From Rhynchopus sp. YZ270_cl-10 (lineage: Eukaryota), in contig OZ037839.1 in assembly GCA_964035575.1 (NCBI GenBank), positions 1,240,001-1,304,000 on the forward strand: DNA of 64,000 bases. The letters are read 5' to 3'. The notes under the pieces were generated by a model. It saw nothing but the letters and a program-made list of their open reading frames with translations, ran no database searches and was not told where the DNA came from. Every line of letters starts with the position of its first letter. Positions within the stretch are counted from its first letter, which is position 1. The position numbers and the translations under genes were made by a program. Positions 14,514-56,158 of this stretch are shown piece after piece.

Positions 14514-16247
14514 ATGGAACTGTGTGTGCAGGGATATGATGAAAACAAATTCGTGATTGAGGTGGGTGAGAACGACACAACGGAGACGATGCGGCAGAAG
14601 GTGGCGTCTGCAACAGGGTTGTGCGAAGACAGCTTCCGCATGGGCTTCGGAGGGAAGGAGGAAGGAGAGGACATCACAGAACTGAGTGCTGGAGACACAG
14701 TCGTGTTGACGAAGTCGACGAAGTACCAATCTGTTGAGACACTTCGTGCCTTGGGTGAGACAGACATTTCCGAAGCGAGGTTGGCGACTGTGAAGGATCC
14801 TGAAGTGGCTTCTCTGCTTCTTCAGGCGGAGGTTGCGACTGTAATTCCGAACTCGTTTTTGTCGCTAGAATCGTTTACGAGACTTGATCTCTCTGCTGTG
14901 TCTGGTGTGACACGCATCGAGCACTACTTCCTCTACTGTTGTGGTTCAGTGGAAACCGTTGACTTGTCGGGATTGTGCAACGTTACGCACATCGTGGATG
15001 CCTGTCTCTCTTGCTGCACATCGTTGACAAGCCTTGACGTGTCAGGGTTCACTGGTGTGACGGTGATAGGGAACAGGTTCCTCCAAAGAAGTGGCGTCCT
15101 ACATCTTGACTTATCCGCGATGACGAGTGTGACGGAGGTTGGTGCAAACTTTCTCTACCACTGCGAGTCGTTGGAAAGGATTGACATCTCAGGATGGCGC
15201 AGAATCACGCACATTGAGGACGGCTTCCTCCATCACTGCACCTCGTTGGCAACCATTGATTTGTCAGCTTTTTGCAGTGTCACGAAGATCGACTCCTACT
15301 TTCTCTTCAACTGCAAGTCGTTGACCACCATCTGCTTTTCAGGGATGACGAATGTGACGGAAATTAACGACAGCTTTTGTTCGTCCTGCACCTCGTTGGA
15401 AACGATTGACTTGACAGCACTGCACAAAGTTGTGAAGGTAGGACACCGCTTTCTGAGGGGCTGCACCTCGCTGAGAAGTATCGACCTGTCAGCTTTTGGC
15501 AATGTCGCAGCCATTGGGAGAGGGTTTCTTTTTGAGTGCACATCATTGAAAACAGTTGATTTATCGGTGTTGCGCAGCCTAACACACATTGAGCAACACT
15601 GGATGGATGAGTGCTTAGCGTTGACAACAGCAGACTTATCAGGAATGAGCAATGTTACGCAGATTGATGCATATTTCCTGCAAGATTGCACATCCTTGAC
15701 CACGCTGGACGTGTCAGGTTTTGGCAGGGACACAGAGATCCAGCAGTACTTCCTGCTCAACTGCAACGCACTCACAACAGTGGTCTTGCCAGGCAACATC
15801 GACATTGACGAGATGTTGTCTCTGCCGAATGGAGACCCTAGAATGAGCACCTACAAGGAGGCCTTCTATGTACGTGTGCGTGAGATTTACGCAAGGTTTA
15901 CGGAACAGTTCGGAGGTGTGCGGATAGAAGCTTTTGAGGCAGTACGAACAGACGTGTCTGGAAGTGCAAGACAATGTATTGCATTGAAAGCAGGACAAGA
16001 GAGAGAAGGGATTGATGCAAGCACAAGAGGACAAAAAAGAGGAACAAAAATCACAAAAAGGGGACGACAAACAGGAGAAACACAAGCAGAAGTATTTGGA
16101 GTGTTTGGTGCAGGACAAACAGAGAGGAGGAAACGGAGGAGGCTTGGTGCGGGACAAAGAGGAGATTTGCCAACAAGAGCGTTTGGAGGGTTTGGGGCAG
16201 GACAAACAGGGGGATTTGGAGGGTTTAGGCAGGAGAAACAGGAGTAG
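14514..16247 (+). CDS. UBL-LRR family A protein copy A4 with diverged basic/FG tail
   Basis: ATG at 14514 in paralog context; colinear with A3 through the LRR region. Confidence 0.85.
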   Translation: MELCVQGYDENKFVIEVGENDTTETMRQKVASATGLCEDSFRMGFGGKEEGEDITELSAGDTVVLTKSTKYQSVETLRALGETDISEARLATVKDPEVASLLLQAEVATVIPNSFLSLESFTRLDLSAVSGVTRIEHYFLYCCGSVETVDLSGLCNVTHIVDACLSCCTSLTSLDVSGFTGVTVIGNRFLQRSGVLHLDLSAMTSVTEVGANFLYHCESLERIDISGWRRITHIEDGFLHHCTSLATIDLSAFCSVTKIDSYFLFNCKSLTTICFSGMTNVTEINDSFCSSCTSLETIDLTALHKVVKVGHRFLRGCTSLRSIDLSAFGNVAAIGRGFLFECTSLKTVDLSVLRSLTHIEQHWMDECLALTTADLSGMSNVTQIDAYFLQDCTSLTTLDVSGFGRDTEIQQYFLLNCNALTTVVLPGNIDIDEMLSLPNGDPRMSTYKEAFYVRVREIYARFTEQFGGVRIEAFEAVRTDVSGSARQCIALKAGQEREGIDASTRGQKRGTKITKRGRQTGETQAEVFGVFGAGQTERRKRRRLGAGQRGDLPTRAFGGFGAGQTGGFGGFRQEKQE

Positions 16248-16754
16248 GGAAGGCAGGACTATTTGGAGGGTTTGTTGACTTGTGTGAAGAACACTTCGGT
16301 GAAAATATAGAACTTCATTTCCACAAAAATTGTTCAGCCTTTTCGATCGACTTTGTTTATTTCCTTCATGGTGTAGCACGTCGAGTAGGTTGTGGTGTAC
16401 ATTGGCATTAGCAGGAGGGTTTGGAGGGTTAGGAGCAGGACAAACAGGAGGATTTGTGTGAAGAACACTTTGGTGAACCTATTGAACTACATTTTTGGAT
16501 ACACCTGTGAACACTTGGGGAAAACGTTATTTACTCTTTCCCATCGTGTGATGGGAAGAATATTGAAGCTGTGGTGTGGGGAGCTGTTTTGTGTGGTTTT
16601 GCTTCATCTTTATCAGTCGTTTTGTTGTATTTTGTTTTGCGTTGTTTCGCCCCCTTGATCGTAGCGACTCTTTTCGAGATACAAAGTATCCCCTTCCCAC
16701 CCCTCCTTCCACAAAACACAAATGTGTTTTGGCGCGTCTCCCACCGCACCACCA

Positions 16755-18789
16755 ATGGCGGTGTGTGAAAACGATGGATGCGGGGCACCTGCAGAGCTGC
16801 AGTGTGGGCGCTGCAGCGAGATGTACCTCTGCAAGGAGAATGCCTGCTTCAACGCTTTGCACCGTGCACCCGACCGTGCCGTGCACCGCAAGTCTATGAG
16901 CGCTTATGGGACAGCATCGCTGTGTGCACATGAGGCAGATCTGACGAAGCGGCGCACTGCTGCAGAGGAGGAGTGCTGTGTGCTTGAGGGATTGGGTGTC
17001 AGGTGCAAAGACCATCTGCAGCAGACGGTGCAAAGACCATCTGCAGCAGACAGAGCGCGGGTACCTCTTTATGGCGGAGGGCTGGACACGCAGCCACATT
17101 GAGAGCGAGGAGGAGGTGTCGAGGAAGCTCCACACACAGCTGTACAGTATTGCAGGTGATGTGTCTGCACTGAAGGCGTTTAGCGCACATGCGGACGGCG
17201 TGATTGCTACGTGCAAGGATGTGTGCCAGCTTGGGCCTGATGTCGCACAGCACATGGCCGCACAGTCGCAGGAGATCATGCACACCATAGCAAGCATCCC
17301 ACTGAACATCAACCGCCACCGCCTTGCGGGTGTTGTCTCCCCACACGCAGAGCTTTCCGTGACACTGCCTGAGTGTGTTGCAAACCTGCACGACAACCTT
17401 GCCCAGAGTTTGCGAGTTGGTGTGTCTCTGCCTGTGGAGGGCTTTGATGGCGAGATGCACAAGGTTGAGGTGGGTGAGGAGGACACAGCCGCAGACTTGC
17501 ATTGGAAGGTGGCGTCTGCAGTGGGGTTGCCTGAAGAGGTGGTGCACGTGAGCTACAAGGGCGAAGCGATTGTGGAGGGAGAGGACATGTGGCCAGCGCC
17601 GCTGCGTGCAGACAGGATCGTGGTGACGAAGACAACGAAGTACGAAGCCATCATTGCACTGAAGGCATGGGGTGTGTCAGTGCCCACAGAGTCGCTGCAG
17701 CGTGTGGACGATGCAAAGGTGGTCTGCTGGCTTCTGCAGGCGGAGGTTACGACAGCAATTCCCGACAGGGTCCTGTCCGGCGCAATATTCACAACACTCG
17801 ACCTGACCGGCACGGACTTGAGCTTTGTTACGACTGTTGGTGAGAGCTTTCTTTGCAGCTGTCCGAACCTGACAACAGCCAACATCTCAGGCTTGACTGG
17901 CGTGACTGCGATTGGGACGCACTTCCTGAGTACGTGCACGTCTCTGACAGAGCTTGTCGCTGACTTGAGCCACGTCACCGCCATACCAGACTTCTTTCTC
18001 CACCAGTGCACGGCACTGACGAACGTCGACGTCACCAGTTGGAACAGCGTGACTTCGATTGGGAACAAGTTCTGTCGCAGGTGCACATCGTTGGAAAGCT
18101 TCGACCTGACTGGGTTCGTGAATGTCACTGCCATTCAGGATGGTTTCCTGCAGGAGTGTATGTCGCTGAGACGCCTCGACCTCTCTTGCATGAGCCGTCT
18201 CGCCGAGGTTGGTGATGGCTTTCTGATGTACTGCCGGGCACTGACGGACGTGGACGTGTCTGGTCTGCCCAGTCTGGGTGCGATCGGGAACAGCTTCCTC
18301 GATGGCTGTTCGGCACTGAAAACACTCAACCTATGTGGCTTCGAAGGTGTGACCGCAATTGGCGCTCACTTCGCTTATAATTGCACACAGCTGCAAACAG
18401 TGAGCATTTCAGGCTTGAACAGCGTGGCTGCGATTGGGAAGTGCTGCCTTGCCGAGTGCAAGATGCTGAAGACACTTACGATCACTGGCTTGACAGCGCT
18501 GCCTCGTATCGATGACTCCTTCGCTTCAAACTGTGTGTCGTTGAAGTCACTGAACATTGCTGGTTTGCGCAGTGTGGCCGTTCTTGGGGAAGGCTTCCTG
18601 TCCGGGTGCATGCATTTACGAGGACTCGATGTCACAGCCTTATCAGGCGTCACTGCAGTTGGGGCAAACTGCTTTCGGGGGTGTGCGGACTTGGGACCGT
18701 TGAAGCAGCTTCAGAAACAGGAGGCGCAAAAGAAGCAGGAGGAGCTTCAACGTGTACAGGAGGAGGAGGAGGAGGAGGAGGAGGAGTAG
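16755..18789 (+). pseudogene. B-box + coiled-coil + UBL + LRR protein, frameshifted by a 25-nt tandem duplication
   Basis: MAVCENDGCGAPAELQCGRCSEMYLCKENACFNALH...H has B-box-like Cys/His spacing; GGTGCAAAGACCATCTGCAGCAGAC duplicated at 17002-17026 / 17027-17051; removing one copy joins the two ORFs; diverged UBL and 25-aa LRRs follow. Confidence 0.7.
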
Positions 18790-19715: not shown

Positions 19716-19822
19716 CTACCCCTTCCCACCCCTCCTTCCACAAAACACAAATGTGTTTTGGCGCGTCTCCCACCGCACCACCAATGGCGGTGTGTGAAAA
19801 CGATGGATGCGGGGCACCTGCA
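19716..19822 (+). pseudogene. Truncated duplicate of the upstream region and first codons of the B-box-LRR gene
   Basis: Matches ~16690-16793 (MAVCENDGCGAPA) and then breaks into AT-rich repeat DNA shared with ~47200-47340 and ~50540-50745. Confidence 0.75.
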
Positions 19823-20853
19823 AAATTTTGGTGTTTTGACCCTTCGGAAGCACCCAAAAACGTACTTTTGTGTACAAAAACACGCATATTAGTAGGTCAT
19901 AAAATGGCCCAAAGAATCCAAAGAAAACCTCAGAAATAGATGTTCGCGAAAAAAATTCGCAAGTCAAACTTCAGCCACAATACGGTCATTTTGTGCATAC
20001 CCTGTGACTGTGGTGGCTAGAGAACACGCACATGCAGACCCGTTCCTTGCAATTTCCAGTGTTGTGTTTATCAATGCATGCATGCATCCAGAGGACCTCT
20101 GGTTTACGAAATCGTAGGCACTCCTGTGCAAAAATGAAGTCGGTTTTTGACCCAAAATCGGGGTGGGTGGGCCATAATTTGCTCCAAATTTGGCAGAAAA
20201 TTGGGATTTTTCTGAAAATTTCATTGTGCCCAGCAAAAATCCTTGATTTTTTGAAGAATTTTCCAAAAAATATGCTATACCCCCTATGACTGGACCCAAC
20301 TCCCCTCACTATTTTTTCCCTAAAAAAGCCCCCAAAATTCCTACCATTTTTACCATTTTTACCATTTTTACCATTTTTGACCAATTTAGGGTACCTCCAT
20401 ATAATTATTTTTTGACCTTATTTTAGGTGCTCGAAGTTGGAATCTGACCCCCATGTCCAGGTCATAAAAATGCCCTGGACATGGGGGTCCAGGGCCCAGG
20501 ATTTGGACAGGACAAACAGGAGCAGGACAAGGAGGAGGATTTGAAGAACACTTTGGTGAACCTATTGAACTGCATTTTTGGATACACCTGTGAACACTTG
20601 GGGAAAACGTTATTTACTCTTTCCCGTCGTGTGATGGGAAGAATATTGAAGCTGTGGTGTGGGGAGCTGTTTTGTGTGGTTTTGCTTCATCTTTATCAGA
20701 TGTTTTGTTGTGTTTTTGTTTTGCGTTGTTTCGCCCCCTTGATCGTAGCGACTCTTTTCGAGATACAAAGTATCCCCTTCCCTCCTCTCTGTTTGTTATT
20801 TTTCAGTACTATTCACCCCTCTCGGGTCTTTTAGGTGATCTCAATCTATCTTA

Positions 20854-21082
20854 CACGACGGTGATGTAACGGGTGTTACAAGTGGAGTTACAAGTGAGTT
20901 ACATGTAACTTTTGTTACATGTAACTCACTTGTAACTCACTTGTAACCCACCAGTTACAACCTGATTTTGCCTGTAATTCATGTATCCCACTTGTAACTC
21001 ACTTGTAACTCACTTGTAACGGTTTTTCACTTGTAACGTTACATGTAACTTCACTTGTAATGTACTGTACATCACCGTCGTG
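20854..21082. mobile_element. 229-bp MITE with CAC termini and TA TSD
   Basis: TIR CACGACGGTGATGTA; TA on both sides; empty paralogous site CTATCTTAGACCTCC near 2189-2203; internal CACTTGTAAC repeats in both orientations. Confidence 0.9.
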
Positions 21083-21125
21083 TAGACCTCCACCTCCCAC
21101 CTTGCCCACCTACCCACAGAGCATT

Positions 21126-24100
21126 ATGTTAAAAACAACTTGCACCCTTCTCTTAGTACTATGTGTTACAGGCGAGGTGCCACCTCCGTCATCGAACGAG
21201 CCCTTTGAGTACAGCTCCTTTTCTGACACCTTTTCCGATGTTGTGGAAAGCTACAAGGCACGCGCCGTGCACGCCGTCAGCGACGACGTCGCGAAGTACA
21301 TGGACAGCATCGGCGTGACTGCCGTGGTGCACGACGTCCTCGAGTCGCACACTGCGCAGTACCTGAACAAAACGGCAGAAGGCATTGAGGCGATGATCGC
21401 ACACCTCTCCTCGACAGACATGCCACGCCTTGAGTCCAGGATCTCAGGTCTGGAGGAGAGTCTTTCTGGGACGCTGTCTGCTTTGGCGGGGCTGACTGAC
21501 GCTGTGAAGCACGCGGGCACTTTTGTTAATGCGGACCGGAGCGGGGAGGCACAGTCGGGGACGATTGGAGATGTTGTGGTTGTGACTGCGGGGTTGGGGT
21601 TGAAGGCGGCGGGGACGAAGGTGGTGGTTGGCGGGGAGGAGGTGGCGGCTTCTGCTTCGGCGGGGTTTCACTTTCAGTTTGGTGTGGATGTTGCTACGGG
21701 GAAGGATGCTGTGGTTGCGTTGGGTGGAGGGGCCTCTGTGGGGATGGGTGTTGAGGACACAACAACAACAACAAAGACAAAGACAAAGACAAAGACAGAC
21801 ACAGGGCTGCTGGAACGCCTCGACGCAGACCTCGACGCAACGTTGTCGGTCGACTTCACCTCCTCCACTGCGGCAGTGTCCGGGTTTGCATACAAAGTTT
21901 CGATCCGCCTCCCCTCCTTCACACACATCAAGTCAATCCACGTCCACCTCCGCCATCCAAACTGGGGCTGTCTCTCGGTGAACCCGAAAGCAATGTTCGA
22001 ACCGACGATGATCGGATGGGGGATGACGCTGTACGAAGGCGCTCCTTCGGGGCTTCTCTCAGGCGCGAAAGGGTTGTGGGCGGAGTTGAAGCTGGCTGCG
22101 GCAGAGGTGGCTGCGCTGAAGGGTTCTGCATGGGGGAAGGGGACCTATATGATTGGAGACTCACTGACGCTGGGAACAGCGAGCATCCCAAAGTTCGACA
22201 GTGCTGCGTGCTGGGTGGGACACTCCTCGACACACAACGCAGCAGGCGTGGTTGTGCACGATGCCGTGGGAAAGGTAACCGACATGGTGGCGTTTCTTGA
22301 GGCGACGGAGACGATGGTGCTGAAGGCACATTACACAGTACCCTTCTGCCTTGGGTCCTGCAGTGGGAAGGTCAGCACTGCGTCCTCTATCTCTGGAAAC
22401 GCGACCCTGAAGTTCACAGACGACCATGATGGAGGTGAGGTGGATATCTATGTGGACGGTGTGACCTTTGGCGGGACTGCGTCGGTGCTTGCTGCAACCC
22501 TGCCGACAGCGGCAAAGAACGTGTTCCTTGGGATGCTGACCCCCATCAGCCACCTTGGTCTTGGTGCGTCCTCGATCAAAGTGGTTGTGACGAAGGAGAC
22601 AGCGAAGCTTACCGCTGCAGGAAGCCCTGCATTGCCTACGGACACAAAGAGCAGTGCGTTTGAAGCCGTTCTGCGTACAATCTCGGATGCAGAGGTGGAG
22701 ATCAAAGCCAGCAAAAGCAGTGAGGTTGCGACCTTTGAGCTTGACATTGGGACAAAGCCGACGGATGGAAGCAAGATTGCGATTCGGAGCGAGGATGGGA
22801 AGGAAGGGTTCACGCTGTTTGCAAAGGCCGCAACGTCCGGCGAGCTTGATGTGGGTGTGTCGCTTCCGGTGCGCCTCTGTGTCGAGCACTGCGGCACCTC
22901 GTCGGCACGGTTCCTCTACCTCCTTGGCGACCTTGAGGTGTCCTTGAGTGGCGAGGAGCAGGTGGTCGAAGGCGGGCTGGTGATGGACGGCTGGTGGAGC
23001 GAAGCCTTTGGGATCCCCTTTGTCAACATTGCGGACATCAAACTGGGCCTTGCCATGAACCTTGAGACCATGGTGCCCACGAAACTCGACATTGGCGGCA
23101 CGGTCTGCCTGGGCACGTGGTCGGACTGCGAGCACAAAACCGGGACCTACATCGAAGCGCGCGCGTACGTTGGCCTCGACATTGATGCGCCTGAGAAGAG
23201 CTACTACATCACCATGGTCAGCAAGCTCACTGTCGGGGAGATCTTTGGCCTCATCGGTGAATACTCGCCATTTGTCAAAAAGCTTGACATTGCACGTAAC
23301 GCACCTTTCCTCGCCGAGTCAGGGATATATCCCTTCAGCCCCGACGCTGCGTGCTCCACGACAGCCACAGCCACAGACACACCACCAGCATCAGTAGACC
23401 TCTCATGCTATGCGTACATGTCGTTCAACGGCGAAGGCAGTGCGAAAACGATTAGCTTCCGCGACGGCGACGTGGTGATCCCGAACGGCATCGCCTTTTC
23501 GGGTAAGATCGACTTCTTTGGATGGAAATTTGGTGTCCAGGCAAGCGTGTCGGAGTCTGCTTTTGACATCAAGGCGGAGATGGATAAGGTGGACATTAAA
23601 ATCGGGGCGACAAGCATCATTGAGATTGGGAAGTACTTGGACGGGTCGGAGGTGAAGGGTGGTGCGACCTTCCATGTTGCTGCGGACAGCAAGAAGGGGG
23701 ACATCTTGGTCGGCGTCTATGGTGCGTTCTCGATTCCCGTGTTGCGTTCGTATGGGGAGCTGCAGCTGACGCTTGACAAATCGACGTTCCGGTTCGAAAC
23801 TGATATGCACCTGTTTGATGGCGCGCTGACCTCGAAGACCCTTGTCGAATGGAACTGGGACCTGACGTACTTCAAGGCGGAGCTTTCGGACATCAGCTTC
23901 GCGGACATCATTGTTGTGAAGGATGTGCACTTTTCGTACGACGAGAAGGCATCGTCCGTCGACTTTGGAGTGAAGATTTCGGTGCTGCGTCTCATCTCCA
24001 TTGCGGCAGAGCTGCGCATCACCGGGAACACCATCGCCTTCGATGTGTCTGCGGACCTTGCACTCATCGCAATAGATGTGTCAGGGACTGCGCAGATTGC

Positions 24101-26144
24101 GACCCCCTTTTCAGACTCATCGTTCCATCTTCATGTTAAAATCGAGCCCGGCGGCGTGGCGAAGGAGATCGGCAAGGTTGCGAAGGCTGCTGTGGAAGCC
24201 ATTGGGAAGGCGGCGGTCGCGGTCTGGGACGGGCTGAAGAAGGGTGTGGAGGTTGCTGTCGCTGCAGTGAAGCACGTCTTCGCGACTGCGCTGAAGTACC
24301 TGGCGAAGGGGTTTGACGCTATGGTGCACGGTCTTGAGGATGTGGTGCACTTTTTGGAGAAGATCCCGATTTTGGGGGACCTTCTGAAGGACATTGGCCA
24401 TGCGATATCTCAGGTGTGGAACTCTGCCTTTGGGTCAACGTCGTCGTCGCACATTGTGACAGAAAGCCACCGGAATGAGTATGGGTGTCGGTACCAGTAT
24501 GTGCGGACGAAGACGTGCCACCACTTTCTGTTCTTCACAACATCGTGCCACTACCACAACGGTGCGCGCTATGCTGACAAGCTGTGCATGGTGGAGGTGG
24601 GGATCAATGCGCAGAAGGTGCGTCTGCAGTCGCTCAAGGCACAGCTCCTGCAGGGCCACCTGAAGGCGTCGCAGGCACGCAACAAAGGGCTGCACGACTT
24701 TGTGAAGGGTGCAACCCTGCCCGACCCTGTCGTGGAGCCGTACGTGGCAGACTTCCCTATGCACGCGACGATGCCTGTAGAGTTTCCCGCAAAGGTGACG
24801 TTGCCGAAGCTGACCTCGAATGGGATTGAGCATGGGCAAGCGATGCACTCCAGTGTGAAGCTTGATCTCAGCTCCGAGGATTCACTGCACGCAAGCAGCA
24901 CGTCGGGCACAGCAGGGCTCGCCAAGCACGCCGCAACCTTCGTGTCCAACCATGAAGGCAACAGCGGTGAGATGTCCAGCTCCGAACGCTCGCGGATCCA
25001 ACGTGAGATCTCCGAGGCGATGCAAAAGCTGCAGGAATACGTCGGGGAGGAGGTCACGCTTGTCCGTCACCACATCAGCAGCCACAGCGAGGCTGCGCTT
25101 GGACGGGACGCAACCCTTCTGGCGGCGAACGTAACAGATGATGGTGATGGTGATGATGCTGATGCTGATGCTGAAGACTTCTTCCCTGTCCTGACACCAC
25201 CTGTCCTCGCACACACCAACCCCGTTTCCATCAGTGAGTGCACAGATGTTGATGAGGCTTTGGACGCACAGAAGCCACAGTTCGAATACATTGACAAACA
25301 CTGCCGTGGCAAGGACGCCTTTGTGTTTCTTGCGGGGATTGAGATGGCCGACAGCTTCGACACCTGCCGCTATGCTGCGAAGGAGCAGGTCACGTGGCGC
25401 GGTGTGGATGCCTGCGGTGAGGAGGGTGTTCCGCTGACGACGACGCTGTACCGCACGCACACTGCGCCTGTCTTTGTGCAGGTCCCTGGCCTGTACACTG
25501 CGGCGTCTCTTACGGAGGACGTTTCGCCCCGTGTTGCTGGGCAGGCTGGTGCATACTCCCCTTGCGGCAATGATGTGGACATCAGCTACACAGACAGCAC
25601 AGTGCGGCAAGGGGTGGGAGCGTTCTGGGTCTTGGAGAGGACATGGACTGCATCGCTGCGCCTGCCTGGCTGCAGCGAGGTTCCGTCCGTCTCGCAGACA
25701 CAGACGATTGTCATTGGCATGTCCGGGGCCGTGGCCGCCTCTGTACCGCAGCTGCGTCTTGGGGATGCCAGTGCGAACACACCGGTGCGTGTGGCCTTCC
25801 GTTCTGGGGGCTACCTCGAGCTGGAAGACAGCGTGGTGCACGCAGTGTGGTGCATGAAGCAGGGTGGCGATGTGTGGGGTTTCAGCAGTGGTGGCTGTCA
25901 TCTGGGTGTGGGTGACGGTGGGCGTCTTGTTTGTGTGGGTGGTGACGACGCAGGTGCCAAGATAGTGCTGGCAGAGGGAGGGCGCAAAGACATGGGCGGT
26001 GCCACTGCCGAGTTTCTGCACATGCAGGTGGGTGAATGGTGCGTAGGAGTGGACCCTTCAACAGCAGTCGTGGCGCTGATGTCGTGCACCAGCCCGCACA
26101 GCGACCTCTCTCTTGAAGTGCAGGACAAAGTGGGGTCGTGCTGA
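21126..26144 (+). CDS. Large secreted protein of unknown function (1672 aa): beta-rich core, amphipathic helices, HYR-like repeats, possible lectin-like C-terminus
   Basis: 5-kb intronless ORF with coding-like composition; signal-peptide-like MLKTTCTLLLVLCVTG; TWRGVDACG and ERTWTAS...QTQTIVI motifs; domain calls by eye. Confidence 0.8.
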   Translation: MLKTTCTLLLVLCVTGEVPPPSSNEPFEYSSFSDTFSDVVESYKARAVHAVSDDVAKYMDSIGVTAVVHDVLESHTAQYLNKTAEGIEAMIAHLSSTDMPRLESRISGLEESLSGTLSALAGLTDAVKHAGTFVNADRSGEAQSGTIGDVVVVTAGLGLKAAGTKVVVGGEEVAASASAGFHFQFGVDVATGKDAVVALGGGASVGMGVEDTTTTTKTKTKTKTDTGLLERLDADLDATLSVDFTSSTAAVSGFAYKVSIRLPSFTHIKSIHVHLRHPNWGCLSVNPKAMFEPTMIGWGMTLYEGAPSGLLSGAKGLWAELKLAAAEVAALKGSAWGKGTYMIGDSLTLGTASIPKFDSAACWVGHSSTHNAAGVVVHDAVGKVTDMVAFLEATETMVLKAHYTVPFCLGSCSGKVSTASSISGNATLKFTDDHDGGEVDIYVDGVTFGGTASVLAATLPTAAKNVFLGMLTPISHLGLGASSIKVVVTKETAKLTAAGSPALPTDTKSSAFEAVLRTISDAEVEIKASKSSEVATFELDIGTKPTDGSKIAIRSEDGKEGFTLFAKAATSGELDVGVSLPVRLCVEHCGTSSARFLYLLGDLEVSLSGEEQVVEGGLVMDGWWSEAFGIPFVNIADIKLGLAMNLETMVPTKLDIGGTVCLGTWSDCEHKTGTYIEARAYVGLDIDAPEKSYYITMVSKLTVGEIFGLIGEYSPFVKKLDIARNAPFLAESGIYPFSPDAACSTTATATDTPPASVDLSCYAYMSFNGEGSAKTISFRDGDVVIPNGIAFSGKIDFFGWKFGVQASVSESAFDIKAEMDKVDIKIGATSIIEIGKYLDGSEVKGGATFHVAADSKKGDILVGVYGAFSIPVLRSYGELQLTLDKSTFRFETDMHLFDGALTSKTLVEWNWDLTYFKAELSDISFADIIVVKDVHFSYDEKASSVDFGVKISVLRLISIAAELRITGNTIAFDVSADLALIAIDVSGTAQIATPFSDSSFHLHVKIEPGGVAKEIGKVAKAAVEAIGKAAVAVWDGLKKGVEVAVAAVKHVFATALKYLAKGFDAMVHGLEDVVHFLEKIPILGDLLKDIGHAISQVWNSAFGSTSSSHIVTESHRNEYGCRYQYVRTKTCHHFLFFTTSCHYHNGARYADKLCMVEVGINAQKVRLQSLKAQLLQGHLKASQARNKGLHDFVKGATLPDPVVEPYVADFPMHATMPVEFPAKVTLPKLTSNGIEHGQAMHSSVKLDLSSEDSLHASSTSGTAGLAKHAATFVSNHEGNSGEMSSSERSRIQREISEAMQKLQEYVGEEVTLVRHHISSHSEAALGRDATLLAANVTDDGDGDDADADAEDFFPVLTPPVLAHTNPVSISECTDVDEALDAQKPQFEYIDKHCRGKDAFVFLAGIEMADSFDTCRYAAKEQVTWRGVDACGEEGVPLTTTLYRTHTAPVFVQVPGLYTAASLTEDVSPRVAGQAGAYSPCGNDVDISYTDSTVRQGVGAFWVLERTWTASLRLPGCSEVPSVSQTQTIVIGMSGAVAASVPQLRLGDASANTPVRVAFRSGGYLELEDSVVHAVWCMKQGGDVWGFSSGGCHLGVGDGGRLVCVGGDDAGAKIVLAEGGRKDMGGATAEFLHMQVGEWCVGVDPSTAVVALMSCTSPHSDLSLEVQDKVGSC

Positions 26145-28110: not shown

Positions 28111-28675
28111 TTGACACTACTGTTTGCTCGATTTTTTGGTCTTAGATAGAAGCTTCCTGCGGCTGAGGTAGTCAAAATGGGAGAGTATTGTGAGTAATAC
28201 CGATATTAACCCAGAATATGTATTACACACCTTACGCACATACAAACTAGTGTTTTTTTTTTTTTAACAGGCGGGCTTAATCTTCAACGTTTCTTCCTCA
28301 TTATGTAAAGAGAAAAAAAAATGCCTGCTACAGTAGTCTTTGATTAACGCAAACTTTCGCCCAAATTAGCGACTCAGGGTTTGTACTCCTCCTCTGTTGC
28401 CTCTCACACACTACGAAACGGGCAGAGGATCCTTACCGGACATATTATATGGGATTCATCCTTGGTGTTTGCAATGATCTCCGTTCCTCTGATGAGTGGA
28501 AGCGGGAGTAGCACATTATCAGATGCAAACCCACGGAAAAAATGGATTGTAGGACTGCATGGTTGGGGTGTCCAACACGGTCATTACGAGAAGGCTTTTG
28601 TATTTTAAATCCAACTTTTTTTTTTTCACCTCCCTCTCAGCACCCCCCCTTTCTGCACCTCTCCCTTTGTTACAC

Positions 28676-31600
28676 ATGGCAACACGGCATCGTACTGCCG
28701 ATGTCGTAACGTCCGAGACGAAGAGCACGGGGTTCCGCAGCCTGCCTTTGAGTGATGCAGTGAAGGAGGGGTTGGGGCTGGCGGGGTACACTCACCCGAC
28801 GCCCATCCAACTGAAGGCAATCCCGATAGGTCTCCTTGGCGTGGACATGGTAGTGAAGTCAAAGGCGGGTACGGGGAAGACTCTCATCTTTGCTGTGCTT
28901 GCGTTAGAAGCTGTGGACACAAAGAGCGCGCTCCCGCAGTCTATTACAATAACCTCCACGCGAGAGATCGCACTGCAAATCGCGAGCGTCATCGAGAAGG
29001 TCGGGAGCAACACGCCAGGCCTCGCTTGCCACACCTTCATTGGGGGCACCGCGCTTCGCGAGGACAAAACAAAGCTCAAAAAATGCCACATCGCTGTCGG
29101 CTCTCCAGGGCGCATCAACGGCCTCATTGAGCAGTCTCTGCTCTTCACCAGTATGCACACACACCCTCCCCCTCTCCTTCCTCTACAGGATTTTTTTTTA
29201 TTCCTGGTAGCAATTATTGCACGGAATACTTTACGTATACACGGCAGCCATCAAGACCAAGACTCTTTAGGTTACTCTTCCTCCTGGTGATCAGACATTA
29301 CATCCAGTAAGGACAGAGAAAGGAATAAGAAAAAAGAAAAAAAAAACTTTTGTATTTTGTGTATTCCCGAAACAAAAAACTGAAGTAGAAGGTACCAAAT
29401 GTTCACACGAACATCGGTTTCACGATATTCACCCACCATTTAAAGGGAAATCACTGAAGATGTCCACCCTTTTGAATACAACTGTATGATTCTTAGGACT
29501 GAAACAGGGTTAATATCAGAAACCAATCTACTGAAGTTTCAACTTGTGCACGAAGCATTTTACTTTTCTTTTCTACGTTTTGCAAAACACACACCATAAA
29601 AGGAAAGATGGGACCATTTTTGTTGATCCCTCACCATATACTATCAATTTATTGATTGCATATGATGAAAATACTTTTTATTTACAAGTGCCTCCAGACA
29701 TGCTGTGAAAAACTGAGAGTATGTTGCGGAATGGTCTCTAGTACATTAGCCCTAAAAAGCTAAACACATAGTGCAAACTAGTTTATATTTATAGATATAT
29801 TCTACTGCTGCACTATGCTTTGTTTACTCATAATTACAAAGGAGTTAACAGAAAGTCGAAGCACACAATACAGCTGTCCTGTGAACTTCGCACTACACCC
29901 CACCCCCTCCCTACCTCTTTGAAACAGTCAAAAAAGAAATCAAAAAAAAAAAAAAAAAAAAAAAAAACAGCAGAAAAAGAGACCAGAGCTCGCGCTAAAG
30001 TCCATCCCTCATCCCGGGATTTTTGGGGGTTTTGGTAGGAACGTTTTTTTTTTGCAGTACGGGGATTTCATTAAGAAACCAGAAGTTCTAATATTGTTGA
30101 GTAAGACCACCACATAGTGGACTTGCATATACATGTGACCCCGCCGTGGAACGCAATTGGCTCGGAAAGCCAAAAGAAAGAGGAGAAAAAAAGAAAAGGA
30201 AAAAAAAAAAAAAAAAGTTGGTTACCGTGCGCCTGCGGCGCTGCCTGTTCCCTTCCAGTTTCTACAGGCAAACACTTGCCCCCTTTACCTTACACTGACG
30301 GGTTTTGACCAAAACCAAGAACTTGTCCATTTCGGCAAATTGACCCCACCACAGAACGGACGAATTCCGGAAATGCAAATGCCGGTGTTTTCGCGCATTT
30401 TCATGTTGCAAGACGTCAGGATCAGGGAGAGAAAATCTGGTTGTGGGATTTACATTGGCCCTCTTTACCCACATGGATTTTGACCAAAACCAAAAAATTG
30501 GCCATTTCGGCAAAGTGACCCCACCACAGCGCGGACGGATTCCGGAAATTCCAATCGCGGTATGTTTTGGGGCTGAAAACCCACTGATTTTCAGGAGAAA
30601 AATTGCTTCCAAATCTCGGAATTTTCCGAATTTTCCTGAAAATGACCCTTGTTTATGAGTATGGGTTCATATTTTGCGAAAATTTAAGTCACTAAAATTT
30701 TGTCCATTTTTCCGTATATACCCCACCACAAGCCGGGATTGGCCCGGAAATGCCACAAAACGGGGTTTCCGGGCCTCCCCAGCTAACCTTTTCGAGGAAC
30801 GTTTTTCCGTACCCGAAATCCATTTTTTCCCCATTTTTCCCCATAATTAGCGCGACCACTGAAAGAGACCAAAAAAAAAAATGATATAATAACAGGGAAG
30901 TTCCTAAGTGGGACCGAGAACATGAAATTCTGGATTTTAGTTTTTTTTTCCTTTTTTTTTTTCCTTTTTTTCCTTAGGGGGCTTTCTTGTGGTTTCTGGT
31001 GGGTTTCACTGTAGGTGACACACCACCAGTGTGGTGAAATGGTCGAAACTCTCAAAAGCAAGAGTTTTCAGGGGGCAAGAAAAAAAAATTGACAACAAAA
31101 TCCTTCACTGTCCAGGGCTGTACCCCCAATTTTTTTTTTGCCTGCGGCGCCATTTTTCATTTTTTGCTCTGCAAAAAAGGGTTCGTTGGAAGCTAGATTT
31201 TTACACTGTACTCAAATTTTTTTGCCTGCGGCGCCATTTATATTATTTTTTGCTCCGCAAAAAGAGAAGTGCAACGCCTCACCGTTCATCGGCGGAAGCA
31301 CTGGTTCCACGGGTTATCGAACCCCAGAGAGCACTTCATTGGCATGCACGCGGTTACCGCGAGGGAGCGTGTATGCAGGTACAAAATCACTGCCCCATCC
31401 AAATAATATTCCCAACGTCTTTGGGGATCCCCTTGCATTTTGCAGCCAAAAATGCAACTAGACCAAAGCAAAAAGTTCCGCGCGAGTGTAGCGCGCCCGG
31501 GTTTGGGACCCCTTTTTGAATTTCGAGGGGCGGTTAAAGTGGGCCCAGAATCACAGTTCTGACACTCATTTAGCATTGTGAGCAACTCACTAGTGGTCGT

Positions 31601-35133: not shown

Positions 35134-35190
35134 ACACCCCTATGGGATCAGGGTAGTGATCGCTTCAAACAACCCAAAAGCCACTCATAG

Positions 35191-35248
35191 CAGGGGCTCC
35201 GCTACCGTATAAAGTTCTGTTGCGGCGCAACAGAAGTCTGAAAATTTT

Positions 35249-35283
<35 letters not shown>

Positions 35284-36929: not shown

Positions 36930-38096
36930 ATGCGCGCGTTGCTTGTGGGGTTGTGTGCAGTGCTGTCTGCTGCGTCGAAGCTGGATGGTGTGCACCGTCT
37001 GAGCTTTGCGGATGTGGAGCGGTTCAACGGGGACTGCCCCTGCAGCGACGCGTCGCTGTGCGCCCCAATCACAGCGACGTACGAGAAGGAGGTGTTTGGC
37101 TTCCTCTCCAGCGAGAAGAAGGGGGCAGACAACAGCAGCTGGGTGAACCTCGACTTCAACCAGATCACCACCGTCGCTTGGGACACTTCCCCTGAACTCA
37201 TCTGCGAGGCGCATAGAAACGGGGTGCGTGTCGTTGCGAACACACCGCGCTATGGGCTTGGTCTTGGGTCAAACAAAACTGCGCTGGATGCGTGGGTGAA
37301 GGACCTCGTGACGATGGTGCAGGGGACGTTCATTGATGGGGTTGTGTTTGACTATGAGTACCCGATCTTCCCATTCTCGGATGGGCAGCAGGAGTTGGTC
37401 AACATTGTCGCGGCTACGACGGGGGCACTTCATGCAGCCATCCCCACCTCGCAGACGTCTGTGTGCGTGCCGTTCGTCCCTGACCACGACAACCGCTACT
37501 ACGACTTCAAAGGCATGGCGGACGCTTCCGACATCTTCTACATTATGTTCTACGACACACAGACCTCCATCTACGGCCAGTGCATTGCAGGCCCCGGTGC
37601 GTCGCTCTCCCTGGCCGCGCATGCTCTTGATGCCTACGCTGCGCTTGGCGTCCCTGCAAACAAGACCGTCCTCGGTGTGCCATGGTATGCTCACGACTAC
37701 GAGTGCATCCCTGGCACCGACCCTAAGGCAGAGTTCTGTAAGATCCCCGACGGTCCTGGATACAGAGGCGCGCAGTGCTCCTACATCGGGCACGCACCGG
37801 AGCGTCATTTCGCGGAGTATATGGACCTGCTCAACACAGGGAACACAACAACAGGGCGCCTGTACAACAACGCAACGGACTCGCCGTACTTTAACTACGT
37901 CGGTGCGAACGGCACCGTCCACCAGGTCTGGATGGAGGACGCGGAGTCGCTCACAAAGAAGTACCAGTACGTCCTCAAACGGAAGATCCGAGGCACCGGG
38001 CCCTTCCAGTTTAGTGACCTCGATTACTCAACCAACCAGACCCGCGAGCAGGCGCAGTCCATGTGGGATGCCCTCAAGGTGTTCACCGGCAAGTAA
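36930..38096 (+). CDS. CTBS: Di-N-acetylchitobiase (GH18), secreted or lysosomal
   Basis: Signal peptide, CPCSDASLCAPI...EVFGF, ITTVAW, LICEAHRNGVRVV, catalytic IDGVVFDYE, VLGVPWY, HQVWMEDAESL, all matching the chitobiase pattern. Confidence 0.88.
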   Translation: MRALLVGLCAVLSAASKLDGVHRLSFADVERFNGDCPCSDASLCAPITATYEKEVFGFLSSEKKGADNSSWVNLDFNQITTVAWDTSPELICEAHRNGVRVVANTPRYGLGLGSNKTALDAWVKDLVTMVQGTFIDGVVFDYEYPIFPFSDGQQELVNIVAATTGALHAAIPTSQTSVCVPFVPDHDNRYYDFKGMADASDIFYIMFYDTQTSIYGQCIAGPGASLSLAAHALDAYAALGVPANKTVLGVPWYAHDYECIPGTDPKAEFCKIPDGPGYRGAQCSYIGHAPERHFAEYMDLLNTGNTTTGRLYNNATDSPYFNYVGANGTVHQVWMEDAESLTKKYQYVLKRKIRGTGPFQFSDLDYSTNQTREQAQSMWDALKVFTGK

Positions 38097-45930: not shown

Positions 45931-46335
45931 TTGTTGGCTCTCTCTCTGTTGTTTTGGCTTTTGTTTTTTTGTCTATTTGTGACGAGGCCTGGAACACCTG
46001 AACATAGGCATATCTGGAAAATCTATCTGAGGTGTGGCAAATTAAATATATTCAAGCGTGTGGTTGAGGCGCACCTAAACATAAGTAAGTGCCAAGTCTG
46101 AACATTTATTTTCAGAGGCCTTAGTGAGGCTGTTTCGGCCTCGTTGCATTGTATCATGATGTAATAAGGTTCACATACTTTCGATTCAAAGAAGAGAAAG
46201 CACACAAGAAAATAAAATGCTGCAAACCACTGGGTGTGTTGTTTGCATCTACACAAGTAACTGAAAGTTAAACATTTACATACCTTGTCTTCCCCGTAGC
46301 CTCCGCCTTCGCTGCTGTCAAGCTGCCTTCTCTTG

Positions 46336-47028
46336 GTACCCAGTACCCAGTACCCAGTACCCAGTACCCAGTACCCAGTACCCAGTACCCAGTACCCAGT
46401 ACCCAGTACCCAGTACCCAGTACCCAGTACCCAGTACCCAGTACCCAGTACCCAGTACCCAGTACCCAGTACCCAGTACCCAGTACCCAGTACCCAGTAC
46501 CCAGTACCCAGTACCCAGTACCCAGTACCCAGTACCCAGTACCCAGTACCCAGTACCCAGTACCCAGTACCCAGTACCCAGTACCCAGTACCCAGTACCC
46601 AGTACCCAGTACCCAGTACCCAGTACCCAGTACCCAGTACCCAGTACCCAGTACCCAGTACCCAGTACCCAGTACCCAGTACCCAGTACCCAGTACCCAG
46701 TACCCAGTACCCAGTACCCAGTACCCAGTACCCAGTACCCAGTACCCAGTACCCAGTACCCAGTACCCAGTACCCAGTACCCAGTACCCAGTACCCAGTA
46801 CCCAGTACCCAGTACCCAGTACCCAGTACCCAGTACCCAGTACCCAGTACCCAGTACCCAGTACCCAGTACCCAGTACCCAGTACCCAGTACCCAGTACC
46901 CAGTACCCAGTACCCAGTACCCAGTACCCAGTACCCAGTACCCAGTACCCAGTACCCAGTACCCAGTACCCAGTACCCAGTACCCAGTACCCAGTACCCA
47001 GTACCCAGTACCCAGTACCCAGTACCCA
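46336..47028. repeat. Heptamer tandem array (GTACCCA)99
   Basis: 693 bp with no interruption seen; related GGTACCCA octamer repeats at ~42012-42100. Confidence 0.97.
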
Positions 47029-47686
47029 AATTGGTCGCCCCCTGGTTGGTCGAGAACCTAAAAATGCAAAAAAACGCAAAATTCATGTGTTTTGACCATG
47101 TCTGGGTACACCAAATACACACCTCTGAACAAGCCTATACCCAGTAGTAGGCAACAAGCGCTATTTTTTGACCAAGAAAAAAAAAATCCCCCAAAAATTG
47201 GGTGTAGTAGGTCATAAAATGGCCCAAAAAATCCAAAGAAAACCTCAGATTGACCAAACAATGAAAAAAATTTTCAAGTCAAATTTTCAGCCAAAATACG
47301 GCTATTTTGGTTATACCATGTGTACTGTAGTGGCTATACAAGGCGATTTTCGGCCAAAAAAAATTTTTTTGGCCAAAAAAAAATTTTTTTTTTCGGCCCA
47401 AAAAAAAATTTTTTTTTTTTTTTTGGGTCCGACTGTCGGACCCCAGAGTCCGACAGACGGACTCCAGAGTCCGTCTGTCGGACCCCTGAGTCCGACTGTC
47501 GGACTCAGGGGGTCCGACTGTCGGACTCAGGGGGTAAGTCCGTTATTTACACACTCCAAGCACGACAGACCGCACCGTGTTTGTGCCAGCCAGCCAGGGT
47601 GTTTCCTAATTTGCTTCCGCTTCCGGGGATTTGGAAAAAATTGGCCAGGGAAAAAATTTGCGGGAAAAAATTAGGGACGTATTTAA

Positions 47687-52468: not shown

Positions 52469-53320
52469 ATGGAACTGACTATCCAGGTCTTTGGGAAGGA
52501 CTTCGTGATTGAGGTGGGTGAGAACGACACAACGAAGACGATGCGGGAGAAGGTGGCGTCTGCAACAGGGTTGTGCGAAGACAGCTTCCGCATGGGCTTC
52601 GGAGGGAAGGAGGAAGGAGAGGACATCACAGAACTGAGTGCTGGAGACACAGTCGTGTTGACGAAAACGATGAAGTACGAAGCCATATCAGCTCTTCATG
52701 CATTGGGTGAGACAAACATCACAGCAGAAAGGTTGCAGCAGGTGGAGGATCCGAAGGTGGCCAGCTTGCTTCTTCAGGCAGAAGTTGCGACTGAGTTTCC
52801 AAACGGCTTCTTCTCAGGTAGTGCCGTAACGCGCATTGGTTTCAGTTGCGTACCCAATGTGGATGACAACTGTGGCATCACACTGCACCTGCCTGCATTA
52901 CCTTGCGTCACCACGATTGGTGACTGGTTTCTCGCCAACTGCGAAACGCTGTCGCAAGTGGACCTGACCGGGCTGCAATCAGTCACCACGATTGATGACA
53001 ATTTTCTCTCCAACTGCACAGTGTTGTCGAAAGTCGACCTCACCGGCTTGCAAGCAGTCACCACGATTGGTGACAATTTTCTCTCCGGCTGCACGTCGGT
53101 GTCGAAAGTCGACATCACCGGCCTGCATTCAGTCACCACGATTGGTCACGGGTTTCTCTCCTCCTGCGAAACGTTGTCGAAAGTGGACCTGGGCGGCCTG
53201 CAATCAGTCACCACGATTGGTGACTGGTTTCTCTACGACTGCACAACGTTGTCGAAAGTCGACGGAATGGACAAGTGTAGCAACGTTGTACGCAGCAGAC
53301 TAGGTGACGTTGGTTTTTAG
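52469..53320 (+). CDS. UBL-LRR family B protein copy B2 (283 aa, 5 LRR units)
   Basis: Near-identical N-terminus and cap to B1; exactly 20 x 25 aa shorter. Confidence 0.88.
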   Translation: MELTIQVFGKDFVIEVGENDTTKTMREKVASATGLCEDSFRMGFGGKEEGEDITELSAGDTVVLTKTMKYEAISALHALGETNITAERLQQVEDPKVASLLLQAEVATEFPNGFFSGSAVTRIGFSCVPNVDDNCGITLHLPALPCVTTIGDWFLANCETLSQVDLTGLQSVTTIDDNFLSNCTVLSKVDLTGLQAVTTIGDNFLSGCTSVSKVDITGLHSVTTIGHGFLSSCETLSKVDLGGLQSVTTIGDWFLYDCTTLSKVDGMDKCSNVVRSRLGDVGF

Positions 53321-53779
53321 GGGCAGTAAAGAAAGCGGGAGTGGGAATTGGGGTGTTGGGATTATTGGGTGTGTTTGGGCGGGTCGAGTAGTACCCCCAC
53401 AGTGGTTATTCAGGAAAAAATAAAAGTGTTTTCTGTCAGGAGAGGGGATGTTTCCATTACATGCCAACTTCTCAAGAGCAGTGCCGCAGGACCATAGTAG
53501 AGCCCTTCGATCCTGAGACGGCGAAAGACCCATAGCACCATCCAGCAGCTGGGTTCTCTCTCCGCAGTTTCCACTCAGGGATAGCTGGATCTCCAAATGA
53601 GGAGTTGCGACGGGACATTGTGTTTTTTTTTTTTTTTACACACACACACTCTCTTTCTCTCTCTGGCTACGGTATCTGAAGTGTTTTATCTCACACCTCC
53701 TTCATTTCCCTGAAATCCATCCTTGACATAATCATTTCAGAATTTACACACTTTTTTATTCTCCTTTTTTATTGCTTCT

Positions 53780-53966
53780 ATGCCGTCATCGATAGATGCA
53801 TTTACACAAGCATGCAAGGAGCGAGGTATGAGGAAGCCCACTGAACCTGACCTCGCAGAAGCTGTACAACGGCGACCTCTCGCCTGACAGCGTCAAGGGC
53901 AACGAAGTTGTGGACCGTGCACATGACAAAGGGATTGCCGTGCAGTTAGTCACTTCAAACAAAAGG
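53780..53966 (+). pseudogene. Internally deleted duplicate of PKAR exon 1 (smaller remnant at ~51441-51465)
   Basis: Matches parts of 56454-56843 with two large deletions and is followed by the same GTATGTC intron-1 start. Confidence 0.85.
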
Positions 53967-54781
53967 GTATGTCTTAGAGAGGAGGTAGGGGGAGGGAGAG
54001 AGAGGGGGTCTAGGGAAGAATCAGTGTACCTGTTGGTTGTTGTTGAGTGAAGTCCTGTGAGGTCGAAAACCTAGAAAACGGTGGGGTAGGGTTGGGTGCT
54101 GTCTTTTACGTACGGGTGGAGTGAGATCGGGGCCCAGAAGGGGGAAGGTCTAGGGAATAGAGTTGAATGCGAAGAATTGTGTTTTGTTCCCTCCTGTGTT
54201 GCGGTGTAGAAGGGCAGAAAAAAGCAATAACGTTATGGGAGGAAAATAGTCGGGGCTTTTTCCTTATTTAATCCCGCTTGCGGGGGGTGATGTGCAGCTT
54301 GCAAAGCGTACTCCTTCTATTTGCTCTCTTTTAAGGGTGCTGTGGAGAATATAGTGTGTCTGCTATCTTTGTGATAGTAGTCTATAAGCAAACAAAGTCT
54401 TATCCAATCTTGCGGGAGGAGTGATGTGTAGGGTGTAAGCATTCGGTCATTTGTATTTGTCGACCCTTTGCATGACCTCGACTGAGATGTGTTTTAGGAC
54501 GTTTCAACTACTCTTTTCATTTCTCGAGACCTTCCAAGACATAGCTTGCAGACAGAGGTGAAACCCCAACAGGGTTGGCCTGTGTGTCATTAGCATTGAT
54601 ACGTGCACCATTTTCCTGTCTAAAACCAAATGAAAAGACCCCCCTATCTCCCTCCTTTATGTCCCTATGTTCTTTCCCACCCGTCCTAATAGCAATGGAC
54701 TGGCAGGCGTGACACTTCGAGGAGCCGTGCTCTTCCTTACCCAACAACCCACCCGCAGAGATACATCAAGAGACACATAAA

Positions 54782-56158
54782 ATGGAACTGAATATCGAGG
54801 GCTTGGGGAAGGACTTCGTGATTGAGGTGGGTGAGAACGACACAACGGAGACGATGCGGCAGAAGGTGGCGTCTGCAACAGGGTTGTGCGAAGACAGCTT
54901 CCGCATGGGCTTCGGAGGGAAGGAGGAAGGAGAGGACATCACAGAACTGAGTGCTGGAGACACAGTCGTGTTGACGAAAACGATGAAGTACGAAGCCATA
55001 TCAGCTCTTCATGCATTGGGTGAGACAGACATCACAGCAGAAAGGTTGCAGCAGGTGGAGGATCCGAAGGTGGCCAGCTTGCTTCTTCAGGCAGAAGTTG
55101 CGACTGAGTTTCCAGAAAACTTCTTCTCAGGTAGTGACGTAACGCGCATTGGTTTCAGTTGCGTACCCAATGTGGATGACAACTGTGGCATCACACTGCA
55201 CCTGCCTGCATTACCCTGCGTCACCACGATTGGTGACGGGTTTCTCTCCTCCTGCGAAACGTTGTCGAAAGTCGACCTCAGCTGCCTGAATTCAGTCACC
55301 ACGATTGGTGACTTTTTTCTCTCCGACTGCACAACGTTGTCGGAAGTAGACCTGACCGGCTTGCAAGCAGTCACCGCGATTGGTCACGGGTTTCTGTCCT
55401 CCTGCGAAACGTTGTCGGAAGTGGACCTCAGCTGCCTGAATTCAGTCACCGCGATTGGTGACTGGTTTTTCCACGGCTGCACAACGTTGTCGAAAGTAGA
55501 CCTGACCGGCCTGCAAGCAGTCACCACGATTGGTGACAGTTTTCTCTCCTCCTGCGAAACGTTGTCGAAAGTGGACCTGACCGGCCTGCAAACAGTCACC
55601 ACGATTGGTGACTGGTTTCTCCACGGCTGCACAACGTTGTCGGAAGTAGACCTGACCGGCCTGCAAGCACTCACCACAATTGGTGACAGGTTTCTCTACA
55701 ACTGCACAACGTTGTCGGAAGTTGACTTCACCGGCCTGCAATCAGTCACCACGATTGGTAACGATTTTCTCTCCTCCTGCACAACGTTGTCGAAAGTTGA
55801 CTTCAGCGACCTGCAAGCAGTCACCACGATTGGTGGCAATTGTCTTTACAGCTGCACAACGTTGTCGAGAGTCAACCTGTCCGGCCTGCAAGCACTCACC
55901 ACGATTGGTGACAGTTTTCTCTACAACTGCACATCGTTGTCGGAAGTAAACTTCACCGGCCTGCATTCAGTCACCACGATTGGTGACGATTTTCTCTCCT
56001 CCTGCACAACGTTGTCGAAAGTGGACCTGACCGGCCTGCAAGCAGTCACCGCGATTGGTGATGATTTTCTGTCCTTCTGCACAAGGTTGTGTATAGTGGA
56101 CGGAAGGGACAAGTGTAGCAACGTTGTACGCAGCAGACTAGATGACGTTGGTTTATAG
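54782..56158 (+). CDS. UBL-LRR family B protein copy B3 (458 aa, 12 LRR units)
   Basis: Same architecture; exactly 7 x 25 aa longer than B2. Confidence 0.88.
   Translation: MELNIEGLGKDFVIEVGENDTTETMRQKVASATGLCEDSFRMGFGGKEEGEDITELSAGDTVVLTKTMKYEAISALHALGETDITAERLQQVEDPKVASLLLQAEVATEFPENFFSGSDVTRIGFSCVPNVDDNCGITLHLPALPCVTTIGDGFLSSCETLSKVDLSCLNSVTTIGDFFLSDCTTLSEVDLTGLQAVTAIGHGFLSSCETLSEVDLSCLNSVTAIGDWFFHGCTTLSKVDLTGLQAVTTIGDSFLSSCETLSKVDLTGLQTVTTIGDWFLHGCTTLSEVDLTGLQALTTIGDRFLYNCTTLSEVDFTGLQSVTTIGNDFLSSCTTLSKVDFSDLQAVTTIGGNCLYSCTTLSRVNLSGLQALTTIGDSFLYNCTSLSEVNFTGLHSVTTIGDDFLSSCTTLSKVDLTGLQAVTAIGDDFLSFCTRLCIVDGRDKCSNVVRSRLDDVGL

Follow-up and report, generated by a model that had tools for sequence, protein, structure and literature searches.

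The retrotransposon hot spot (RHS) genes of Trypanosoma brucei and T. cruzi have a hot spot for long interspersed nuclear elements (LINEs) at one position, which gives rise to split pseudogenes, and are mosaics formed by conversion (PMC7563717, in the part of the article available). Tandem gene arrays of T. brucei show concerted evolution and gene conversion (according to part of PMC1855330), and the unstable F-box genes of Caenorhabditis have been proposed to recognise foreign proteins (part of PMC8665587). Here, we analyse 64,000 nucleotides of Rhynchopus sp. YZ270_cl-10 (contig OZ037839.1, positions 1,240,001 to 1,304,000; the window) containing a cluster of genes that combine a ubiquitin-like (UBL) domain with leucine-rich repeats (LRRs). 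A 164-nt block of the UBL is identical in members of two otherwise divergent subfamilies, A and B, and ends at a site where a LINE appears to interrupt many relatives. The literature searched holds no description of this UBL-LRR family or of its LINE, and the genome paper of D. papillatum, in the portion of its main text available, mentions no LRR, BspA, ubiquitin, gene conversion or RHS, although its supplements may bear on this (PMC10161547).

A 164-nt block shared by two subfamilies

The window contains six full genes, all on the forward strand: A2 (4538–5956, 472 aa), A3 (6900–8468, 522 aa), A4 (14514–16247, 577 aa), B1 (39083–41434, 783 aa), B2 (52469–53320, 283 aa) and B3 (54782–56158, 458 aa). 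The 3′ part of a further A-type gene, A1 (1–1052, +), is cut by the window edge, and gene C (17071–18789, +) is a divergent family member. A4 encodes a UBL, a helical linker, BspA-type LRRs and a low-complexity tail; B3 encodes a UBL, a linker, a 16-residue insertion and 25-aa BspA-type LRRs.

Positions 14550–14713 of A4 and 54815–54978 of B3 (both +) match exactly over 164 nt with no extension on either side, which confirms the identity, including synonymous sites, that the sequence-only reading had reported. The longest other exact match between the two genes, within about 2 kb, is 17 nt. The first 11–12 codons, the 5′ flank, the linker and the LRRs all differ, again as had been read from the sequence. 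In the linker, A4 and B3 differ at 39 of 132 nt, with a proportion of differing synonymous sites (pS) of 0.55. At this rate, the block would lack any synonymous change with a probability of 2e-9 (Fisher p 3e-5). Over the 44 codons that follow the block, A–B comparisons give pS values of 0.47–0.55, about half of all synonymous sites; synonymous divergence is thus not low along the whole gene, so the gene-wide low divergence that had been named beforehand as contradicting conversion is absent.

The block is common to all six full A and B copies. Relative to A4, it carries no synonymous difference in any copy, and three non-synonymous differences in A2 (4574–4737; one of them, Q>E, also in B2), one in A3 (6939–7102), two in B1 (39116–39279) and two in B2 (52502–52665), all on the forward strand. 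Synonymous differences are zero in 15 of 15 pairs, and non-synonymous differences range from 0 to 5 per pair. A4 and B3 are therefore not special; they are simply the two window copies that retain the commonest block allele. Within the window A genes, none of the block's 34 synonymous sites segregates, compared with 21 of 147 in the rest of the gene; simple inheritance predicts 5.5 segregating sites for the block (Poisson p 0.004).

Gene C serves as an internal control. Its UBL has not been homogenised, and in the block it differs from A4 with a pS of 0.35 and a proportion of differing non-synonymous sites (pN) of 0.39. Its linker differs from those of A and B with pS values of 0.46–0.56, which resemble the A–B values, so the A and B linkers are about as distant from each other as either is from C. 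In the AlphaFold model of B2, the block begins at residue 12, halfway along strand 2, and finishes together with the last strand. Since it starts mid-strand, it is not a whole UBL domain.

Conflicting trees and chimeric relatives

Homology searches gave 149, 339 and 122 relatives, and the best 120 from each search were taken; all derive from long contigs in ENA. A profile search contributed the best 150 of 412 representatives, many of which are polyubiquitins. Among 160 aligned proteins, 28 have a block that lies within 7.5% of that of A4. Twenty of these local-block carriers are encoded on a 1,487,168-nt contig, six on a 418,955-nt contig and two elsewhere, on four contigs in all, and they combine the local block with four LRR types (A, B, P0014 and P0024). 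Metagenome scans gave no further carriers: a DNA pattern found nothing, a weak blank since the pattern was the family majority allele and would miss the window allele, and a protein alignment yielded 310 pattern matches with none confirmed.

Separate trees of block and linker+LRR, as the sequence-only reading had proposed, were compared by approximately unbiased (AU) tests on 52 proteins hand-chosen to span the family tree. With insertion columns removed, the linker+LRR tree rejects a clade of A and B (p-AU 3.8e-7). Conversely, the block tree rejects the clade defined by the 16-residue insertion, which contains B (p-AU 0.001), and rejects P0024 with its true sisters (p-AU 0.013). Between 14 A and 13 B proteins, fixed amino acid differences are absent from the block (0) and affect 8 of the 44 linker positions. 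Among 8636 pairs of proteins with distant bodies, gene C and two fragments being excluded, 197 share nearly the same block. All of these except one involve the four local-carrier contigs (196 of 197); the remaining pair, P0154/P0094, is independent and lies on another contig common to both (block distance 0.06, body distance 0.57).

Several relatives are chimeras with the exchange upstream of the insertion site described below (P0012, P0013, P0015 and P0181). In P0012 and P0013, a B-type body follows an A-type start. P0181 has a UBL of a distant subfamily, yet at 5 of 5 diagnostic sites in codons 22–44 its allele is the local one, while 7 of 7 sites outside them keep its own. Doubly bounded patches, with recipient sequence on both sides, are thus seen in A4/B3 at the DNA level and in P0181 at the protein level. 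Within the block, A and B share 6 alleles out of 11 and 15, respectively (weighted p 0.006).

Two putative insertion sites and a young LINE

What is new here is that the break points of early-ending family proteins are concentrated at two fixed sites, one of them just after the block, and that most of the tails at the first site would derive from one young LINE. We examined 334 proteins, of which 270 are family-like: 206 with an intact N-terminal region, 56 that end prematurely and 8 that begin late. The 56 early-ending proteins break at site 1 (24), at site 2, a single linker position (22), or elsewhere (10). Site-1 breaks, as assigned by eye, lie no more than two codons from the lysine that comes right after the block.

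Fourteen of the 24 site-1 tails fit open reading frame (ORF) 1 or ORF2 of one LINE in some forward frame; 4 are too short and 6 show no fit. The 14 fitting tails have eight start points and one orientation, and five of them (one being the reference) begin at the full 5′ end. ORF1 contains an OTU domain. ORF2 contains a 2A motif followed by domains of an apurinic/apyrimidinic-type endonuclease (APE) and of a reverse transcriptase (RT) in one ORF (P0186, P0187), with no Pfam match to RNase H; an ESM Atlas search with ORF2 returned generic APE-RT clusters only. Because site, orientation and truncation series are shared, ORF1 and ORF2 probably belong to one element. Its copies are nearly identical (0–1 of 705 residues different in ORF1, 0–7 of 460 in ORF2) and, judging by these predicted proteins, it is young and recently active. 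Of three members of the ORF1 cluster that clustering rather than a UBL query brought in, two are also fused at site 1.

A query with the block alone recovered near-identical blocks followed by an OTU domain, and one more distant block followed by RT. The proposed search for the block fused to other domains therefore did find fusions, which we read as in-frame LINE insertions, and because of this, domain shuffling of the local block is mostly rejected. In two other proteins, P0175 and P0177, more distant UBLs of the family continue at site 1 into long stretches of unrelated sequence that does not match the LINE and has weak KOW-like and DUF3876-like matches; these proteins are possibly retrocopies or true cases of domain shuffling.

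Four downstream halves begin again about six codons ahead of the break; P0282/P0324 are the one pair that resembles two parts of a single gene. From these interrupted proteins, we infer a target-site duplication of about 18 nt, corresponding to 14706–14723 in A4 and, at the same position, 54971–54988 in B3 (both + and empty). The block's 3′ end, 14713, falls inside this putative duplication, 8 nt from its left edge. Site 2 corresponds to 14798..14799 in A4 and 55063/55064 in B3 (+, empty). It is occupied in 22 relatives from several subfamilies (P0155, P0156, P0158, P0162, P0165–P0168, P0188–P0195, P0197, P0199, P0240, P0241, P0245 and P0246), whose inserts have a few recurring starts and no match to the site-1 LINE ORFs. 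All window genes are empty at both sites, and no pieces of the LINE or of the site-2 insert were found in the 64-kb window.

Origin of the shared block

Since the segment trees conflict and the relatives include 5′ chimeras as well as a clean internal patch, the best reading is that paralogues lying close together have repeatedly exchanged the block at the DNA level, by gene conversion and crossover, and we regard this as likely. The UBL would be the sole stretch still similar enough between the subfamilies to pair, and exchange confined to it would keep the UBL alike while linker and LRRs diverge. The earlier proposal of recent gene conversion thus holds for conversion as such, on the strength of the synonymous identity, tree conflict, P0181 and the chimeras; a recent event between A4 and B3 is not supported, as the block is common to the local cluster. 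The accompanying suggestion of cassette shuffling of an effector domain fares less well, given that the block is not a whole domain and that the OTU and RT fusions are insertions; P0175 and P0177 leave some room for shuffling, and the effector role is putative.

A number of observations weigh against repeated conversion or limit its reach. The window genes were read as DNA, the other family members and the LINE as predicted proteins only. The block evolves slowly throughout the family (median distance 0.24 versus 0.46), so part of its similarity reflects constraint. A grouping of B with P0124 is not rejected by the block tree (p 0.07), and the 54 columns of the block alone do not resolve the local carriers as a clade, nor reject it (p 0.33). 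The block tree points to no donor or direction, and the reciprocal product, a B start on an A body, was not seen among the relatives. Finally, without five 5′ chimeras, the alleles shared by A and B fall to 2, which is not significant (p 0.11–0.39).

This last result would also suit a single old transfer of the block into the ancestor of A (or B), followed by inheritance with no continuing exchange. The B genes are young, with 1 of 59 synonymous sites segregating, and in a short-read run with a different organism label (X6), junctions of the A type and of the B type occur and 86 nt match the block exactly, which indicates that block sharing may predate the X6 split. We nevertheless consider a single transfer improbable: the block is found on four LRR types or more, P0181 has a patch of its own that is bounded on both sides, and the variation of the block within A lies below the prediction from inheritance.

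The position of the block's 3′ end raises the question of what part the LINE may have played. The block ends inside the putative target site of an element that interrupts many family members, and nicks by the LINE endonuclease, repaired from a neighbouring gene, could start the conversions; we put this link forward tentatively. The plain explanation of the coincidence is that the LINE merely exploits a conserved, multi-copy target. In the model, the 3′ end of the block is also the end of the UBL fold, and a conserved domain end could explain both tract end and target choice with no need for a causal link. A fuller version, in which LINE and host family are coupled, is likewise doubtful: nicks after the UBL would lead to repair that homogenises the UBL and swaps 5′ modules, full-length copies would borrow the host start as in-frame UBL-OTU fusions, and the site would now and then gain other sequence (P0175, P0177). 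If true, this would be an RHS-like diversification system of independent origin in a putative protist immune family.

The LINE could instead have acted through RNA, its RT copying a family mRNA at the nick and overwriting the sequence upstream. The tract is one-sided, and its 3′ end lies where target-primed synthesis would start (mechanism as described in part of PMC5814959); the near-identity of the ORF1 copies marks a young element. This RNA-templated conversion is quite unlikely in view of two observations. P0181 retains its own residues in the two codons directly upstream of the duplication, so its patch does not touch the nick. In P0013, P0016 and P0017, the A-type leader reaches a pyrimidine tract that is probably upstream of the putative trans-splice acceptor, which would exclude mature mRNA as the template for these leaders.

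Selection at the nucleotide level, through RNA structure, an antisense gene or codon bias, might also preserve synonymous sites. Synonymous divergence is modest even to gene C, third-position GC content is 0.70 in the block versus 0.52–0.55 in the linkers (significance not computed), and short antisense ORFs overlap the A copies. The block itself shows no RNA structure (z +0.63), and every antisense frame has stops within 150 nt of it in six of six copies, which rules out a conserved antisense gene over the block. Short-read contigs show synonymous block variants across the family, and such selection leaves the bounded patch and the clustering by contig unexplained; we hold it to be very improbable.

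Assembly collapse or a polishing error is the least credible explanation, for although no short-read contig spans the block and no long reads were seen, the six window copies each have their own small differences, 28 block-carrying proteins lie on four contigs, and independent short-read contigs from other studies (four runs and one further run) contain a B-type 5′ junction as well as 3′ junctions of both types, which answers the objection of an assembly chimera.

Protein architecture and putative function

In Pfam searches with the window proteins, ubiquitin (PF00240) scores 25.2 bits, a borderline value just below the cut-off of 25.4, and the BspA-type LRRs give strong matches to PF13306 (LRR_5) above the cut-off. 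We modelled the protein of B2, which is identical to database protein P0121 from the 1,487,168-nt contig. The model, based on 71 sequences (pLDDT 90), shows a beta-grasp fold at residues 2–66 followed by three helices and the LRRs. Modelling the N-terminal 110 residues from a single sequence gave a poor result (pLDDT 54), which was not used. Foldseek matches the B2 model to TpLRR proteins (PDB 6mlx, 4fs7) and to ubiquitin, the latter with an rmsd of 2.2 Å over 71 residues (E about 0.005).

Ile44 is part of the hydrophobic patch of ubiquitin. The UBL position aligned to it is Gly, and no C-terminal di-glycine was found after the last UBL strand. The UBL is therefore unlikely to be conjugated as a modifier or to serve as a standard proteasome handle.

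At variable LRR columns, defined from 11 non-window A proteins, the three window A pairs, which are not mutually independent, show pN values of 0.42–0.60 versus pS values of 0.06–0.12 (Fisher p 1e-6 to 2e-10). LRR surface positions are thus under positive selection. Selection pattern and architecture together point to a function in variable recognition: the proteins would be putative binders inside the cell that share an N-terminal docking module and vary in their LRR face, and by analogy, their role is probably defence. Some relatives carry a B-box upstream, which is compatible with recognition.

Several further observations concern these genes. In B1, about 25 LRR units of 75 nt, 80–88% identical, occupy 39500–41377, and unit number is very different in B1, B2 and B3. 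A B-box-like ORF (16722–17102, +) lies in another frame ahead of gene C (region 16722–18789); because B-box, UBL and LRR share a single frame in the close relative P0217, gene C looks frameshifted or spliced. Positions 16690–16793 are repeated exactly at 19719–19822. A-type 3′ tails and flanks that lack the gene body are present at 1445–3380 and 20499–20856 and are likely leftovers of unequal crossover.

Other features of the window

Judging by their ORFs, genes of the window appear to be split by introns. Between A3 and A4, a 1038-aa ORF with a hAT dimerisation domain (9472–12588, −) is likely a DNA transposon. A 1694-aa ORF occupies 21060–26144. A DEAD-box helicase gene lies in pieces at 28559–36177 and includes two duplicated segments that are 99% identical (29205–29677/32660–33131 and 30871–31776/35272–36177). 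It is followed by a GH18 glycoside hydrolase (36930–38096, +). A short-period tandem repeat at 46268–47086, probably of 7 nt, gives a 7-residue repeat in translation. Pieces of a protein kinase A (PKA) regulatory subunit at 56454–56897 and 63337–63999 (+) match best to 6ftf, 6flo and 6h4g, which we take to be trypanosomatid structures, and score lower against a Euglena structure; the N-terminal piece also gives weak LRR matches. Together with the split genes, this ranking of PKA structures makes a diplonemid the probable host.

Comparison with known systems

Conversion of a block among paralogues is ordinary. The setting is unusual: the family numbers hundreds of UBL-LRR genes, evolves under arms-race selection and belongs to a probably free-living euglenozoan, and it has two fixed sites of insertion and a LINE that was active recently. 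Because a single genome offers tracts, nick site and young insertions for mapping, exchange driven by a retrotransposon endonuclease in its target family is directly testable. The genes also form a candidate intracellular defence family in a lineage for which the literature searched describes none.

By Pfam and Foldseek, the LRR class is that of BspA/TpLRR proteins (PF13306; PDB 6mlx, 4fs7), with an N-terminal UBL in place of their surface-protein context. Clusters of ubiquitin with DUF285 repeats and a similar layout, taxa unrecorded, occur in the ESM Atlas (scores 0.82–0.85) and are leads only.

The LINE resembles L1Tc and other 2A-bearing APE-type LINEs in having 2A upstream of APE and RT in ORF2 (as far as described in parts of PMC3894237 and PMC5814959). 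Unlike these, it has no RNase H match in Pfam and has an OTU ORF1 at the same site. OTU domains are known in the Ginger1 and Helitron DNA transposons (part of PMC2836005); in PMC6875170, OTU has another sense and offers no parallel.

Like the unstable F-box genes of Caenorhabditis, the UBL-LRR genes form a birth-death family with a conserved N-terminal module of the ubiquitin system and a positively selected C-terminal binding region (compare the available sections of PMC8665587). No F-box is present in the UBL-LRR family, and the functional likeness is one of analogy only. As in the tandem arrays of T. brucei, regions of the gene give conflicting trees, and homogenisation and divergence coexist at one locus (PMC1855330, in part); here, in contrast, exchange joins subfamilies whose linkers have diverged at about 50% of synonymous sites, and it is confined to the 164-nt block.

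The closest parallel is RHS, of whose arrangement the UBL-LRR family and its LINE would be a second, unrelated case. Both families have a conserved N-terminus and variable C-terminal subfamilies, a LINE at one fixed position in many members (here at the protein level), and crossing-over or chimeras upstream of the insertion site (RHS features as given in part of PMC7563717). The UBL-LRR family differs in having two hot spots and a host that is probably no trypanosome, and its element has a separate OTU-bearing ORF1 that is absent from ingi/L1Tc in the portion of PMC3894237 available. The host protein is also different: Pfam gives only ubiquitin and LRR_5, with no RHS domain bearing an ATP/GTP-binding motif upstream of the site. 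Because the proteins are unrelated, the UBL-LRR family appears to work like RHS without being a member of it.

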